From Bacteroidetes bacterium CG2_30_32_10 (GTDB taxonomy: Bacteria; Bacteroidota; Bacteroidia; Bacteroidales; CG2-30-32-10), in NCBI GenBank assembly GCA_001872995.1, contig MNXO01000012.1, forward strand, positions 1 through 33,719: a stretch of 33,719 nucleotides of DNA, written 5' to 3'. This document shows positions 589 to 6,748 of this stretch, in pieces (the stretch's first letter is position 1; every line of letters starts with the position of its first letter). Both the position numbers and the translations under genes were made by a program. Below the pieces are notes generated by a model that searched no databases, had not been told where the DNA came from, and saw only the letters and a list, made by a program, of their open reading frames with translations.

Positions 589-1986
589 ATGAAAAAAATA
601 GTAATATTAGTTTTAATTTCCCTTATTTTTTTATCTTTCACCAACATTTCGAATGCAGGAAACCCAAACAATAAAAAGAAACCTAAAAATATCATACTTC
701 TCATTGGAGATGGGATGGGTTACAATCAGATAAAATCCTGCGATTATTACTATGACCAAATACAAGCTTATGAAAAATGGGAAAATCATTATTGGGTAAG
801 CACTTATCCTTATGGTTCGTCTTATAATTCTGACTCTGTGTGGACATTTTATAATTATGTAAAAAGTCGTTATACCGATTCAGCACCAGCCGCCACAGCC
901 ATGGCAACGGGTGTAAAAACTTACGATGATGTGATTGGACTTGATCATTTATATTTAAAAGTAGAAAATGTTTGCGAATTAGCTAAGAAAAACAATAAAA
1001 GTACGGGGGTAATTACCACTGTTCCTATTCCACACGCAACCCCTGCTGGTTTTTTAGCTCACATTGTTAATAGAAACTATTATCATTCCATTCTAACACA
1101 AATGCTTATTGATAGCAAAGCCGATGTTGTTATGGGATGTGGCAATCCTGATTTCGATAACAATGGTAAACCTACTACCAAAGAATCTGATAGATATATT
1201 TATTCCAGTATTTGGAAAGATATTAAAAATGAAAGTCTGGAGTTTACCGATGAAACTGGTGTAAAAAGGACAATAAGTAGTTGCGATGCTGATAATACGC
1301 CTGATAAATGGTTTTTGTGTGAAAGATTTTCAACGTTCGACAGCATTGCCAAAGGATTATTTATACCAAAAAGATTGCTTGGCATTCCTCAAGTATTTGA
1401 AACCCTTCAACAAGAAAGAGATAAGAAGAGTGAAGAATTAAAACCTTATGATACGCCTTTTAATCCAAATATTCCTTCGCTTTCAACTATGGTTGGTGCA
1501 GGTTTAAATGTTTTACAAAAAAACAACAATGGTTTCTTTGTGATGATAGAAGGAGGTGCTATTGATTGGGCTTGTCATGGAGGAGATGCTGTTCGTTTGA
1601 TAGAAGAGGTCAATGAATTTAATAATGCCGTTGCCACAGTTATTGACTGGGTTAATAAAAACAGCAATTGGGACGAAACATTAGTTATCGTAGTAGCTGA
1701 CCACGAAACTGGTTTTTTAACTGGTAAAAATATCAACGAAAAAAATTATAAAACAGAAAAGCTGCAACTCGAAAATAATGGCAAACTAAATATGTCTGGT
1801 ATGGTATTCAACACGGGGAGTAAGACCAAAAGCTATTACTCTCATTCCAATTCATTAATACCAATATTTATCAAAGGAAACGGAAGCGAAGTGTTCACGA
1901 AATATATAGATGAATCTGATTTGGTTAGAGGCAAATATATGCAAAACAATGAAATAGGATTAGCTTTAAAAGAATTACTAAACTAA
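589..1986 (+). CDS. phoA: Alkaline phosphatase (PhoA family), secreted
   Basis: Signal peptide; KNIILLIGDGMG; catalytic Ser in TDSAPAATAMATG; HATPA; metal-ligand motifs IEGGAIDWACH and ADHETG; C-terminal His (SHSN). Confidence 0.93.
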   Translation: MKKIVILVLISLIFLSFTNISNAGNPNNKKKPKNIILLIGDGMGYNQIKSCDYYYDQIQAYEKWENHYWVSTYPYGSSYNSDSVWTFYNYVKSRYTDSAPAATAMATGVKTYDDVIGLDHLYLKVENVCELAKKNNKSTGVITTVPIPHATPAGFLAHIVNRNYYHSILTQMLIDSKADVVMGCGNPDFDNNGKPTTKESDRYIYSSIWKDIKNESLEFTDETGVKRTISSCDADNTPDKWFLCERFSTFDSIAKGLFIPKRLLGIPQVFETLQQERDKKSEELKPYDTPFNPNIPSLSTMVGAGLNVLQKNNNGFFVMIEGGAIDWACHGGDAVRLIEEVNEFNNAVATVIDWVNKNSNWDETLVIVVADHETGFLTGKNINEKNYKTEKLQLENNGKLNMSGMVFNTGSKTKSYYSHSNSLIPIFIKGNGSEVFTKYIDESDLVRGKYMQNNEIGLALKELLN

Positions 1987-2006
1987 ATCGAAATTTTATA
2001 AATTTG

Positions 2007-2266
2007 GGTTAATCCTTTTTTTGAGGTGCTTTTTTATAATTTTTCGAGAAACTTTGTATAATAGCTATTACACAAAGAGCCTCAAAGAAACCTCAAAAAT
2101 CACAAAGACTCATAATTGAACAAACAGGTTAATCCTTTTTTTGAGGTGCTTTTTTAATTTTTTTTGTGCAACTTTGAGAAAATTTTGTGCAACTTTGTGT
2201 AATAGCTATACCATAAAGAGCCGTAAAGAAACCTCAAAAATCACAAAGACCTATGATTGAAAAAAC
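2007..2266 (+). repeat. Two tandem imperfect direct repeats (2007-2125 and 2127-2266), each containing a heptamer-ladder palindrome
   Basis: Identical 30-mer GGTTAATCCTTTTTTTGAGGTGCTTTTTTA at 2007-2036 and 2127-2156. Both copies share TAATAGCTAT centres and AAAGAAACCTCAAAAATCACAAAGAC. Copy 1 ends ATAATTGAACAAAC and copy 2 ends ATGATTGAAAAAAC, the start of the GxxExxY gene. Confidence 0.93.
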
Positions 2267-2633
2267 CGAAAACGAACTATCAAATACTATTATTGGGTGT
2301 GCTATTGAAGTTCATAAACAATTAGGACCCGGTTTATTAGAATCGGCTTATCAGGAATGTTTGTTTTATGAGCTTGTTAACAAAGGATTGACTGTAATAA
2401 AAGAAAAACCTATGCCCATCATTTATAAAGATGTAAAACTTGATCATGGATATAGAATTGATTTACTCGTAAATAATAAGGTGGTAATAGAGATTAAAAC
2501 TGACGAGGTATTTACAGATGTCCATACTGCACAAGTTTTGACTTATCTTAAATTAGGTAATTATAAACTCGGTCTATTACTTAATTTTTATGTTACAACT
2601 CTTAAAACAGGAATAAAACGAGTTATCAATTAA
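2253..2633 (+). CDS. GxxExxY protein (PD-(D/E)XK nuclease superfamily)
   Basis: 126 aa; EVHKQLGPGLLESAYQECL signature; RIDLLV...IEIK (D...ExK); HTAQVLTYLK; LGLLLNF. Confidence 0.95.
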   Translation: MIEKTENELSNTIIGCAIEVHKQLGPGLLESAYQECLFYELVNKGLTVIKEKPMPIIYKDVKLDHGYRIDLLVNNKVVIEIKTDEVFTDVHTAQVLTYLKLGNYKLGLLLNFYVTTLKTGIKRVIN

Positions 2634-2659
2634 AATAGTAGCACAAAAAAGAATTAACC

Positions 2660-2667
2660 TATATTTG
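2660..2667 (+). promoter_or_regulatory. -7 promoter element for the 2685 ORF / TonB receptor unit
   Basis: TATATTTG(CA) matches TAnnTTTG, 18 bp before the TTG start. Confidence 0.6.
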
Positions 2668-2684
2668 CATTTTATTGATATGCT

Positions 2685-3203
2685 TTGAAAAGAACAATCA
2701 TCATACTAATCCTTTTACCTTTTCTGTATTTAAACATCGGATTTTATCCATTTTTCCTACTAAAACAGCAATTGATTAAAAAGGAAATCAAGCTAAAATT
2801 GAAAGGGAGCATTCCTAATAATGAATTAACAACATTAATATTCGATAAAGCTACTTATACATCTATAAAGTGGATCAATAAAAAAGAATTTTCTTTTAAT
2901 GACCACATGTATGATGTTGTCAAAATTGAAAACATCAATAATAATAACATCAAGGTAATTTGTATTGATGATATAAAAGAGAAATTATTATTTATACAAT
3001 TAGATAAACTCACTAAAACCAGCAAAAAAAGTAAACAGAACAAAGAATTCTTTTTATCTAAATTGCTTATCAAGGATTATATGCCAACTAATAAATTAAT
3101 TGTAGAGCGTTTTTATAAAATAATTAATCGCTTTAGCCTAATAAAAGACTTTTACAACTCTTTTGAAACGGAAAAACCCAGTCCTCCTCCTAAATTCTGT
3201 TAA
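2685..3203 (+). CDS. Hypothetical membrane-anchored protein with C-terminal PPP tail, upstream of a TonB-dependent receptor
   Basis: TTG start; N-terminal hydrophobic segment; core EFSFNDHMYDVV...CIDDIKE; ends KPSPPPKFC. Confidence 0.75.
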   Translation: MKRTIIILILLPFLYLNIGFYPFFLLKQQLIKKEIKLKLKGSIPNNELTTLIFDKATYTSIKWINKKEFSFNDHMYDVVKIENINNNNIKVICIDDIKEKLLFIQLDKLTKTSKKSKQNKEFFLSKLLIKDYMPTNKLIVERFYKIINRFSLIKDFYNSFETEKPSPPPKFC

Positions 3204-3363
3204 TAATTTCTTTTAAGTGTTTAATAAATATTAATCCCATTAGGTTTAAAACCTCTGGTATTTTATTATTACACCCAATTTAATATTTGTTTGCTTATTG
3301 TTGTTTAGAAACAACTTTGAGGAAACGAAAAACATATTTATAAATTCAAATAATCGTAAAAAG

Positions 3364-5775
3364 ATGAAAAAAACAATACTTTTCTTTTTAATATTTACAA
3401 GCGTTATATCAATAAATAAAGCTCAAACCATATCGGTAATAGATAAAACAACCTTGCAAACCATTCCAAATATTACCATTACTGATTTGATTTCAAACAA
3501 AACCATTGTAACAAATGCAAAAGGTCAGGTTGATATAAGCCCTTTTAAACATTCTGACAGCATAAAAATTAGTTATGTGGGTTATCAAACAATGGTATTA
3601 AGTTATCAACAAATCATTGCCAATAAAAACAAAGTGATGATGAGCGAAAAACTATATTCATTAGGCGAAATCGTAATATCTGCCAACCGATTTGAGGAGA
3701 AAAAAGAAGATATTCCTTCGCAAATGCAATTAATAAAATCAAAGGAACTTACTTTTATGAATCAACCAACTACTGCTGATATTATTACACAATCGGGAAA
3801 CATACTTGTTCAAAAAAGCCAAATGGGTGGTGGGAGTCCAATTATTCGTGGTTTTGAAGCGAATAAAGTTTTGATGGTAATTGATGGTGTTAGGATGAAC
3901 AATGCAATATATCGTGTAGGTCATCTTCAAAATATCATCACCATTAATAATTCTGTTTTAGACAAGGTAGAAGTAATTTTTGGACCTGGCTCCGTAGTTT
4001 ATGGTAGTGATGCTTTGGGTGGTGTAATGCACTTTTATACCCAAAACCCTGTTTTGTCATCAGAAGTTGGTAAAACCAATATAAGTGCAAATGCATTTAC
4101 TAGGTATTCAACCGCTTCAAACGAAAGTACTTCTAATATAACGTTTAATATTGGTGGACAAAAAGTCGCATCTCTCACAAGTATCTCTTATTCTAAGTTT
4201 GGCGATTTACGCCAAGGCAATATTCGCAACCCCTTTTATGGTGATTGGGGAAAGTGCAATTTTTATGTGAAACGTTTTGATAACAAAGATAGTATGTTGG
4301 TTAATGACAATGTGAACATACAAAAGAACTCAGGTTATAGCCAGATTGATTTGTTTGAAAAGATTTTGTTTAAACAAACCGATTTTCTTTCTCATTTAAT
4401 AAACATACAATATTCTACTTCATCAGATATTCCTCGTTACGACCGACTAACAGAGATGTCGGGAGGTAAACCAAAATATGGTGAATGGTATTATGGACCA
4501 CAAAAACGCTTACTTGCTGCTTATAACCTAAACTATAAAAGGCAAAGTCTTGTAATGGATAACCTAAACCTTATTTTATCATACCAAGATATTGAAGAAA
4601 GCCGTTACGACCGCAAATTTAAAAAGAACTTTAAAAACTGTCGCATCGAACAAGTAAATGTAATGGCTTTGAACTTGGATGTGGAGAAAAAAATAAAGAA
4701 AAATGAACTCAGATACGGGCTTGAGGGAACCTACAATAAAGTAAATTCCTCTGCACACATTCAAGACATCATTGCTGATACTACCGCCTCATTAGACACA
4801 AGGTATCCTGATGGCGGTTCTGATATGAAATCGTTTGCACTTTATTTAACACATACCTACGAATTGAATCCTAAATTTATTATTACAGATGGGATTCGCT
4901 ATAGTTACGTTACATTGGATGCAACTTTTGAAGATACCACCTTCTATCATTTTCCTTTTAAAGAAGTAAGCCAGAAAAACAACGCATTAAATGGCAATTT
5001 AGGCGTTGTTTGTATGCCTGGTAGCGAATGGCGATTTGCACTTCTCGGTTCTACTGGGTTTCGAGCTCCTAATGTAGATGATTTGAGTAAAGTATTTGAA
5101 AGTGTTCCTGGCAACATCATTGTACCAAATCCTGATTTGAAACCAGAATATACTTATAATGGCGAAATAACTATAGGAAAAGGGTTTAATAATAGGATTA
5201 ATATTGAAGGAGTTGGTTATTATACCATTTATAAAAATGCTATCACCACAAAACCTGTAAAATTTAACGGAAAAGATAGCATAATGTATGACGGTCAATT
5301 GAGTCAAGTAACGAGCAATGTAAATGCACTCGAAGCTTATATATATGGGACAAGTATAAATTTAAAAGCAGATATTACTGATAATTTTTCTATTGCAAGT
5401 TCTTTAAATTATACTTATGGAAGAATTAAAACGGATACCACGGCTTATCAATTGGATCATATTCCTCCTGTTTTTGGAAAAACCTCCTTCAACTTAAATT
5501 TAAATAAATTCAGATGCGAATTTTTTGTGATGTATAATGGCTGGAAGCGAGAAAAAGATTATAATAAATATGGAGAAGACAACTTTAAAAGCGCAACACC
5601 CAATGGGATGCCCGCTTGGTTTACTTTAAATCTTCGGACTGCATATCAATTTAACAAACACATTCAGCTACAAGCTGGATTAGAAAACCTATTAAATCAA
5701 AATTATCGCGTTTTTGCTTCAGGCATTGGAGCACCAGGACGCAATTTGTTTGTAACACTTAGGGGAAACTTCTAA
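3364..5775 (+). CDS. TonB-dependent outer-membrane receptor
   Basis: Likely start is ATG 3364 (MKKTILFF signal peptide) rather than 3298. N-terminal extension (ISYVGYQ); plug motifs SPIIRGFEANKVLMVIDGVR and EVIFGPGSVVYGSDALGG; GFRAPN and NPDLKPE; ENLLNQNY...PGRN; terminal Phe. Confidence 0.95.
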   Translation: MKKTILFFLIFTSVISINKAQTISVIDKTTLQTIPNITITDLISNKTIVTNAKGQVDISPFKHSDSIKISYVGYQTMVLSYQQIIANKNKVMMSEKLYSLGEIVISANRFEEKKEDIPSQMQLIKSKELTFMNQPTTADIITQSGNILVQKSQMGGGSPIIRGFEANKVLMVIDGVRMNNAIYRVGHLQNIITINNSVLDKVEVIFGPGSVVYGSDALGGVMHFYTQNPVLSSEVGKTNISANAFTRYSTASNESTSNITFNIGGQKVASLTSISYSKFGDLRQGNIRNPFYGDWGKCNFYVKRFDNKDSMLVNDNVNIQKNSGYSQIDLFEKILFKQTDFLSHLINIQYSTSSDIPRYDRLTEMSGGKPKYGEWYYGPQKRLLAAYNLNYKRQSLVMDNLNLILSYQDIEESRYDRKFKKNFKNCRIEQVNVMALNLDVEKKIKKNELRYGLEGTYNKVNSSAHIQDIIADTTASLDTRYPDGGSDMKSFALYLTHTYELNPKFIITDGIRYSYVTLDATFEDTTFYHFPFKEVSQKNNALNGNLGVVCMPGSEWRFALLGSTGFRAPNVDDLSKVFESVPGNIIVPNPDLKPEYTYNGEITIGKGFNNRINIEGVGYYTIYKNAITTKPVKFNGKDSIMYDGQLSQVTSNVNALEAYIYGTSINLKADITDNFSIASSLNYTYGRIKTDTTAYQLDHIPPVFGKTSFNLNLNKFRCEFFVMYNGWKREKDYNKYGEDNFKSATPNGMPAWFTLNLRTAYQFNKHIQLQAGLENLLNQNYRVFASGIGAPGRNLFVTLRGNF

Positions 5776-6279: not shown

Positions 6280-6705
6280 TTATTTAGACATTTTTGTTTT
6301 AAAAGCCAATGCATAAAGCTTCATTTGCTTAATCATTGCTGTTAAACCATTGGCGCGAGTAGGAGAAAGATGCTCTTTTAAACCTATTTTTTCAACAAAA
6401 TCGAGCTTTGAATTCAAAACATCATCGGGTGTTTGATTTGACAAAGCGCGAATTAGCAAACCAACAATTCCTTTGGTGATAATAGCATCGCTATCGGCTT
6501 TAAAAATAATTTTATCACCCTCCAGTTCGGCATTTAACCATACCTGCGATTGGCATCCTTCTATTAGATTGCTTTTAGTTTTATATTTTTCATCAATAAG
6601 AGGTAAGGTTTTACCAAATTCAATGATGTAACTATACTTATCCATCCAATCGTCAAAGTTAGAAAACTCTTCAACGATTTCATTTTCTATTTCTTCTATT
6701 TTCAT
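6280..6705 (-). CDS. sufE: SufE sulfur acceptor
   Basis: IEGCQSQVWL, ADSDA, HLSPTRANG. Confidence 0.95.
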   Translation of the reverse strand: MKIEEIENEIVEEFSNFDDWMDKYSYIIEFGKTLPLIDEKYKTKSNLIEGCQSQVWLNAELEGDKIIFKADSDAIITKGIVGLLIRALSNQTPDDVLNSKLDFVEKIGLKEHLSPTRANGLTAMIKQMKLYALAFKTKMSK

Positions 6706-6748
6706 TTTCTATTTCTTTAAATTAATCGATTAAAAGACAAGCACCAAT

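Follow-up and report, generated by a model that had tools for sequence, protein, structure and literature searches.

A probable transposase-less insertion cassette with ISL3/ISAon1-type ends carrying a GxxExxY nuclease gene and its heptamer array in a Bacteroidales genome

The 653-bp segment at positions 2007-2659 of the window, the 33,719-nucleotide stretch of contig MNXO01000012.1 that was analysed, is most probably a mobile insertion cassette that has ISL3/ISAon1-type ends, lacks a transposase and carries as its cargo a GxxExxY nuclease gene together with the heptamer array of that gene. The window sits on contig C140 of the source genome, G000 (Bacteroidetes bacterium CG2_30_32_10), a metagenome-assembled genome (MAG) of 2.11 Mb in 182 contigs that is 75.7% complete and has 31.5% G+C. 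The cassette entered an 8-bp AT-rich target between a phosphatase-family gene and the next gene, duplicating the target, once the source and the sister species had diverged. Its cargo consists of the intact GxxExxY gene and the inverted CACAAAG-heptamer array that is typical of the gene family, and an ISAon1-type transposase would move the whole cassette in trans. The heptamers would serve as DNA binding sites for the accompanying nuclease, and nuclease and array would form a selfish unit in itself, which here rides in a transposon cassette. Such a module in a transposon vehicle would account for the near-identical proteins in distant Bacteroidota. The left TAnnTTTG copy at the insertion site would drive transcription into the cassette, and the right copy would still serve the downstream gene.

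Both flanking genes lie outside the element. The upstream gene (589-1986, plus strand) encodes a 465-residue protein of the alkaline phosphatase family (PF00245, 193.4 bits), and the downstream gene (2685-3203, plus strand) encodes a 172-residue protein without a family match. Each has an orthologue on contig C128 of the same-genus genome G001, which matches window positions 1300-2005 at 76% and 2685-3206 at 69% DNA identity. The match that includes the upstream gene stops at window position 2005, and the orthologue of the downstream gene begins 32 bp past its end. This 32-bp spacer carries a single copy of ATAAATTTG, and window positions 2006-2684 are absent there, so that the contig presents an empty site. 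In the window, the left copy of the target duplication, TAAATTTG at 1999-2006, corresponds to the single copy at the empty site and is repeated at seven of eight positions by the right copy, TATATTTG at 2660-2667, which is probably the -7 box of the downstream gene. These two are the sole TAnnTTTG boxes on the plus strand between 1900 and 2760. Duplications of 8 bp, the length produced by ISL3-family elements such as Tn7546 (PMC9782665), also flank other copies: the two sides agree at eight of eight positions around a gene-less copy on G000:C7, at seven of eight around its orthologue on G001:C164 and at eight of eight at locus L170. At locus L178 the boundaries set by the script agree at three of eight positions, and the printed ends, read by eye, are GCTTCACT on both sides. 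No empty-site joint was seen among the contigs of four public runs.

The ends of the cassette belong to a recognisable family. The 23-nt head of the repeat, with up to three mismatches, is present in seven of 41 related genomes, while a reversed control pattern is present in none of the 41. In G006 the head is found some 120 nt away from seven ends of contigs (six starts and one end), five of the heads being left ends followed by the start of an ORF and two being right ends; this is the placement expected of a multi-copy IS that breaks assemblies. In G005 the C-terminus of a transposase lies inside the terminal inverted repeat (TIR) and matches PF01610 (DDE_Tnp_ISL3, E 1.5e-12), NF049917 (ISAon1, E 1.1e-15) and NF033550 (ISL3, E 2e-10). 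A complete element of 1485 bp, with ORFs of 131 and 359 residues, lies between such TIRs on G011:C328. The left TIR (IRL) of the window, at 2007-2029 on the plus strand, agrees with the TIRs of these transposase-bearing elements, whose ORFs match PF01610 and NF049917, at 20 of 23 positions (G006) or 19 of 23 (G005 and G011). Since the same ends bound transposase-bearing elements in related genomes, the 30-nt head is, as judged by sequence comparison, the left TIR of an ISL3/ISAon1-type insertion sequence. It is not the nuclease's own cis element, as which the original prediction had taken its “invariant head”, whose identity between the units spans 2007-2036.

The right TIR (IRR), at 2641-2659 on the minus strand, lies just past the stop codon of the nuclease gene. 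It is degenerate and 4 nt shorter than IRL, and was recognised from an inverted repeat between 2000-2021 and 2645-2666 (86% complementary) and from a minus-strand match at 2659 with at most two mismatches to the 15-nt core. The degenerate right TIR and the target duplication of seven in eight count against the cassette, as does the result of a strict test in which both TIR cores had to lie within two mismatches: among 80 loci of close homologues, five (L154, L160, L162, L170 and L178) have both cores in the order IRL, palindrome, gene and IRR, and the window failed on its right side. Those five loci are in Lentimicrobiaceae, Prolixibacteraceae and Bacteroidales MAGs. Matches to NF049917 were obtained in five of 12 other genomes of the family. 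The ISAon1 element of G001 was considered as the source of the cognate transposase and rejected. We only infer mobilization in trans, since a search of the source genome, at 75.7% completeness, turned up no ISAon1/ISL3 transposase (no NF049917 match) and the transposase-bearing element of the sister species has different TIRs.

Two tandem units, at 2007-2126 and 2127-2266, occupy the region upstream of the nuclease gene. Their heads (2007-2056 and 2127-2176) are 88% identical over 50 nt, the first 30 nt being the same at all 30 positions, and their bodies (2032-2125 and 2173-2266) are 82% identical over 94 nt, with 21 nt extra in unit 2. Both bodies are imperfect palindromes with a central TAGCTA, which were delimited by inverted-repeat search, folding and motif scan. 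In unit 1, the first copy of IRL is followed by palindrome 1 (2016-2103; apex at 2062-2067), in which the inverted heptamer arrays have decayed to CTTTGTA at 2052, CACAAAG at 2071, CTCAAAG at 2081 and CACAAAG at 2101. The unit ends in a remnant of the first five codons of the gene (2112-2126, plus strand), recognised by in-register alignment with 2253-2267, in which the ATG has decayed to ATA. Unit 2 begins with an internal copy of IRL (2127-2149, plus strand) that is identical to 2007-2029, and its palindrome 2 (2136-2248; apex at 2203-2208) has left-arm units at 2162, 2172, 2183 and 2193 and right-arm units at 2212 and 2242, together with two decayed ones. Two tandem units with an identical 30-nt head and a palindromic body, directly preceded by a TAnnTTTG box, had been described in the original prediction, and the repeat search and TAAATTTG at 1999-2006 bear out that description.

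What looks like a two-unit “array” is the left end of one transposed cassette in duplicate, comprising TIR, palindrome and first five codons. Duplicated left parts recur elsewhere. Locus L160, which is partly masked, has two IRLs and keeps about 33 codons in its first unit; two palindromes are present at L164 and L180, and three at L155/L156. By a strict count, which overlooks the decayed arrays of the window itself, 15 loci have a palindrome of this kind upstream, and five of them have at least two. From these duplicated left parts at other loci, the two-unit array is a recurrent by-product of the cassette lineage. The duplication may have arisen by nested self-insertion followed by recombination, and slippage is another possibility.

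The nuclease gene (2253-2633, plus strand) is intact, encodes 126 residues and is the sole ORF of the cassette. Against TIGR04256 (cut-off 35) its product scores 149.1 bits, and against PF13366 (cut-off 22) 143.8 bits, the profile matches covering residues 8-125. It matches no other family beyond weak matches to Cas4 models (E 1e-4), which are consistent with a PD-(D/E)XK core. In an alignment of 44 sequences of relatives, Gly27, Tyr33 and Asp70 are invariant, while Glu30, Glu80 and Lys82 are conserved in at least 90%; from this conservation both the GxxExxY motif and the D...ExK triad are intact, in agreement with the lone 126-residue gene that had been predicted. The function of the PD-(D/E)XK family PDDEXK_3 is given as unknown in literature of the Pfam era (PMC3424549). 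Sequence and profile searches of the PDB with E values up to 10 yielded no solved relative, and a search of the ESM Atlas returned GxxExxY clusters alone. A search for vehicles gave no match in phages, and seven of 72,556 plasmid records match, every one at less than 60% identity.

The source genome contains two gene-less copies, on contigs C7 and C70, which answers the proposal that orphan copies be sought there. The copy at C7:2422-2568 has both TIRs (cores alike at 14 of 15 positions), one palindrome, and the ATG with three codons, the same kind of first-codon remnant as that which ends unit 1 of the window. A perfect 8-bp direct repeat lies on either side of it. Its orthologue on G001:C164, upstream of a dapD-like gene, keeps the first nine and the last 20 or so codons of the nuclease. 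Since the G001 copy retains more codons than that on C7, the two appear to represent stepwise decay of one old insertion at the dapD locus. The copy at C70:5846-5942 has decayed further and has a truncated PF05635 gene as its neighbour. On G001:C153 there is a pseudogene copy (78% DNA identity, four stops) whose right TIR is well kept, far better than that of the window. In all, the 2.1 Mb of the source genome holds four palindromes of this type, two on C140 and one each on C7 and C70.

The closest relatives of the protein span different orders and even another phylum. They were sampled as 80 loci at 67-92% protein identity from named genomes, and include proteins from an Ignavibacteriales MAG (92% over 106 residues), Paludibacter (90%), Porphyromonas and Flavobacterium MAGs (89%) and Lacihabitans (85%); proteins at 84-92% identity occur in records of Cytophagales, Flavobacterium, Paludibacter and Ignavibacteriales. 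These proteins are far more alike than is the flanking phosphatase gene between two congeneric species, which, as a comparison of sequences, argues for horizontal transfer of the nuclease. The flanks of a paralogue on G000:C170 lie on different contigs in G001, which was used for the empty-site comparison. A second GxxExxY gene, at G000:C70:14258, is accompanied by CACGAAT arrays and by a perfect outer inverted repeat of 12 nt, and lacks ISAon1 ends; gene and arrays are absent from the orthologous intergenic region on G001:C72. Modules of array and gene are thus gained or lost as units without an ISAon1-type vehicle.

Of 29 GxxExxY genes, taken from the source genome and from 25 genomes related to it, most are flanked by short units with a 7-nt core. 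The core varies (CACAGAG, CACAAAG, CGCAAAG, CGCAGAT or CACGAAT) and stands upstream of the gene, with its reverse complement downstream; the upstream-downstream complementarity exceeds that of all 50 shuffles in 17 of the 29. At least a partial CACAAAG/CTTTGTG array is present at 75 of the 80 closest homologous loci and a full one at 49, compared with three full and 397 partial arrays (8%) at 5000 random positions, all drawn from one AT-rich genome, the source. The arrays enclose the gene at 23 of the 80 loci, form a complete palindrome upstream, as in the window, at 18, and do both at eight; the array is partial at 26 and absent at five. The co-occurrence of repeat and protein that had been proposed as a check is thus found, and the prediction that the repeats are the cognate element of the nuclease is supported by this co-occurrence for the palindromic bodies and fails for the TIR head. 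The apex of the upstream palindrome (…GTGTAATAG|CTATTACAC…) is identical to the two outer ends of an enclosing module joined right to left, so that, by its sequence, the upstream form looks like a circular permutation or a tandem junction of the enclosing form. A C-terminal tail that ends in Leu is present in nine of 11 CGC-type and two of 71 CAC-type proteins, with two independent pairs on supported branches of a tree that is poorly resolved; this is a hint that the tail may follow the second base of the heptamer. Genes of the PF05635 four-helix-bundle family are abundant in these genomes, the source having seven matches and one relative as many as 25, and they too have inverted arrays on their flanks, of other motifs.

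The arms of these palindromes do not behave as the two strands of a stem. In 32 non-redundant upstream palindromes from 23 loci, the spacing of the units peaks at 10-11 nt. When the i-th unit of one arm is assumed to pair with the i-th unit of the other, and cores within one mismatch of CACAAAG alone are used, the spacers between cores have the same length in ten of 68 arm pairs, and there eight of 33 positions are pairable; of the core pairs that depart from the consensus, 11 of 101 are compensated in the Watson-Crick sense. The covariation for which a check had been proposed is therefore not seen, and 13 gene-enclosing arrays gave the same result. Folding of the plus-strand RNA of the two units in the window gives weak z-scores of -2.3 and -1.6, and the minus strand of unit 2 gives +0.1. 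Against Rfam 15 at permissive thresholds, the best matches in 1800-2800 are plant microRNA models with E 0.22, far below gathering scores. From the helical spacing, the non-pairing spacers, the few compensations, the weak folding and the lack of an Rfam match, the arrays look like iterated motifs on one face of the helix, which would be protein-binding sites, rather than a co-evolving RNA stem. Their co-occurrence with the gene suggests that the heptamers are bound by the adjacent nuclease.

Several other explanations of the repeat have to be weighed against the cassette. That it is an assembly artefact, or a plain local tandem duplication without a mobile element, is very improbable. Even though metagenome assembly often breaks or collapses repeats, and the public contigs are fragmented here, the junction between units 1 and 2 is bridged in two of four separate public runs (X1 and X9) by contigs that extend at least 31 letters to either side of it, and a third run (X5) has a junction contig with 36 and 30 letters on either side. 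Since these contigs come from separately assembled runs, the duplication is real and not the assembly artefact that had been considered with the prediction. In run X2 there is a hint of a different order of the units. The units also differ at 12-18% of positions, and the locus shows TIRs, a target duplication and, in G001, an empty site. A structured leader RNA, acting as a riboregulator or attenuator of the nuclease gene, which had been one of the two roles originally proposed, would suit palindromes that lie between a promoter-like TAnnTTTG box and a start codon. It is nevertheless a poor fit and improbable, given that no Rfam family is matched even at E 0.1, that z-scores are weak and spacers non-complementary, that pairing comes without covariation (11 of 101), that units are freely duplicated, deleted and decayed among close relatives, and that the same palindromes are found without any gene. 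RNA could also act in another way: inverted arrays may pair in the transcript and be cut by RNase III, which would insulate an inserted gene from host transcripts. Inverted arrays that enclose the gene are frequent in the GxxExxY family and occur around PF05635 genes as well, the family of the rRNA intervening sequences, and the 23S rRNA intervening sequences have complementary ends that are cut by RNase III (PMC4990558). In the window, however, both arms lie upstream and cannot enclose the gene, pairing is limited to the heptamers between unequal, non-pairing spacers with few compensatory changes, and folding is weak, with the minus strand of unit 2 at +0.1. A role in RNA is thus unlikely; it is kept as a rival for the gene-enclosing arrays and fits the upstream-only palindromes of the window poorly.

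The strongest of these rivals is the likeness to REP and RAYT, the other role originally proposed, according to which the nuclease would recognise, cut and spread the palindromic units as its own mobile substrates, the transposon ends being incidental. RAYTs are Y1/HUH enzymes, and a REP is a short, perfect hairpin that a genome carries hundreds of times. That arrays accompany the GxxExxY family far above chance, that palindromes of this type lie scattered without a gene (at least seven matches in G017, for example), and that the module at G000:C70:14258, absent from G001:C72, shows modules to come and go without ISAon1-type TIRs, all speak for such a way of working. However, the insertion in the window is bounded by ISAon1-type TIRs and an ISL3-type 8-bp duplication and not by the palindromes, the source genome has four palindromes of this type alone in 2.1 Mb rather than many dispersed copies, and its gene-less copies resemble decay products at orthologous sites rather than new insertions. 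The protein has a PD-(D/E)XK fold and is no Y1/HUH transposase, so that membership of the REP/RAYT class fails while the analogy may hold as a way of working. As an explanation of the insertion it is doubtful, though less so than either RNA-level reading, and the transposase-less cassette is preferred.

The GxxExxY/PDDEXK_3 family is large and widespread and has no known function or substrate, and the window gives two handles on it. One is how a lineage moves: it is carried by an ISL3/ISAon1-type cassette, for which there is a clean empty site as well as a target duplication. The other is that the flanking palindromes act like repeats of a 7-nt motif set at helical intervals, unlike an RNA or DNA stem whose arms co-evolve, and so direct attention to the binding and cleavage of DNA with defined heptamer arrays. 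Tentatively, and with somewhat less than even confidence, GxxExxY proteins may be nucleases specific for helically phased heptamer arrays, forming minimal selfish modules that spread by homing or transposition into arrays, decay, and at times hitch-hike in IS-derived cassettes across orders and phyla. If this is true, the window would be the first case in which the array module and the transposon vehicle can be separated. For annotators, it is a caution that “invariant repeat heads” beside such genes may be transposon ends. Among the papers listed for GxxExxY, PDDEXK_3/PF13366 and TIGR02436/TIGR04256/S23p, we found none that describes the pairing of this nuclease family with helically phased inverted heptamer arrays; for the last group of names, the one relevant paper among those listed is that on the Coxiella IVS.

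Each of four known systems shares features with the cassette and differs from it in others. Like the REP/REPIN-RAYT systems, the cassette has one small gene flanked by palindromic repeats of a dispersed kind, but the gene encodes a PD-(D/E)XK fold and the repeats are few-copy heptamer arrays with units one helical turn apart. The intervening sequences of 23S rRNA that bear an ORF, such as the Coxiella IVS, count as selfish elements that were acquired horizontally (PMC4990558). They have in common with the cassette a small selfish ORF, inverted repeats at the borders, horizontal acquisition and decay of the ORF, whereas the cassette is intergenic between protein genes, its ORF belongs to PF13366 and not to S23p/PF05635, and both arms are upstream. 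Elements of the ISL3/ISAon1 group (NF049917, NF033550 and PF01610) share with it TIRs that begin with GG and 8-bp duplications; the cassette, however, lacks a transposase ORF, the nuclease being its only ORF. Mobile insertion cassettes (MICs) are IS-derived, have no transposase and are movable in trans by a related IS (PMC3129680), and MICs and MITEs are both treated as transposase-less IS derivatives (see also PMC5444012). IS-family TIRs, a duplication of the length typical of the family, a passenger gene, the lack of a transposase and gene-less miniatures are all common to these elements and the segment at 2007-2659. The latter differs from them in that its cognate transposase was not found in the source genome, which is 75.7% complete, in that its left end is duplicated internally, and in that its passenger is a GxxExxY nuclease with a palindromic array of its own. 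The outer layer is an ordinary IS-derived cassette, and it is the passenger that is unusual.

In the source genome, a second GxxExxY gene (G000:C70:14258-14581; about 1440-1880 in the fetched locus L003) has CACGAAT arrays alongside it and an outer inverted repeat of 12 nt that is perfect. In a genome of the same genus (G001), the orthologous intergenic site, on C72, has neither this gene nor its arrays, and the matches to the two flanks of the gene are 4 nt apart. A fourth GxxExxY paralogue of the source genome (G000:C158:6487-6840, locus L004), which scores only 71.8 bits, has no flanking arrays. Its ExK residues are gone, with IKIIAEE in their place, and the gene may have decayed or been re-purposed.

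The C-terminal end of the protein may vary with the type of heptamer that flanks its gene. Among the 93 GxxExxY proteins of the fetched loci that were compared, a two-residue C-terminal tail (N-x-L) is present in 9 of the 11 proteins with CGC-type heptamers versus 2 of the 71 with CAC-type heptamers, a comparison in which the tree resolves too few independent pairs for a test. The protein of locus L184, which is placed inside a CAC clade, is apparently a separate case.

In one public sequencing run (X2), a 171-nt contig related to window positions 2007-2266 carries a body like that of unit 2, with five differences, followed by a single A and then another head. This may point to a different order of the units, or to an additional one, within the population. 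In the two-IRL cassette of a Lentimicrobiaceae MAG (L160), a masked run of N in the first unit, at about 868-967, covers the right arm of the first palindrome. Palindromes of the form CTTTGTG-TAGCTA-CACAAAG occur without a gene at four loci of the related genome G017 (L077, L078, L081 and L082). They are enclosed in turn by a further inverted repeat on the outside (AGAGTTTATACCGAAT … ATTCGGTATAAAC), which suggests that the gene-less palindrome is nested within another miniature element.

A SufE-like gene of the window, which belongs to a suf cluster of sufE, sufS and sufD-like ORFs, has a short triple repeat of TTCTATT in steps of about 10 nt at its 5′ end (6685-6715). The repeat codes for an N-terminus rich in E and I, and looks like ordinary coding repetition.

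Genes of the PF05635 four-helix-bundle family are multi-copy across the source genome and 20 relatives: the source genome has seven matches, and the relatives have up to 25 each. Short-motif arrays, mostly inverted, sit beside many of the 28 PF05635 loci inspected by eye (in the range L122-L151), and the motif, on the same by-eye reading, differs between loci, ACAAG/CTTGT and GGCAGT/ACTGCC being two examples.
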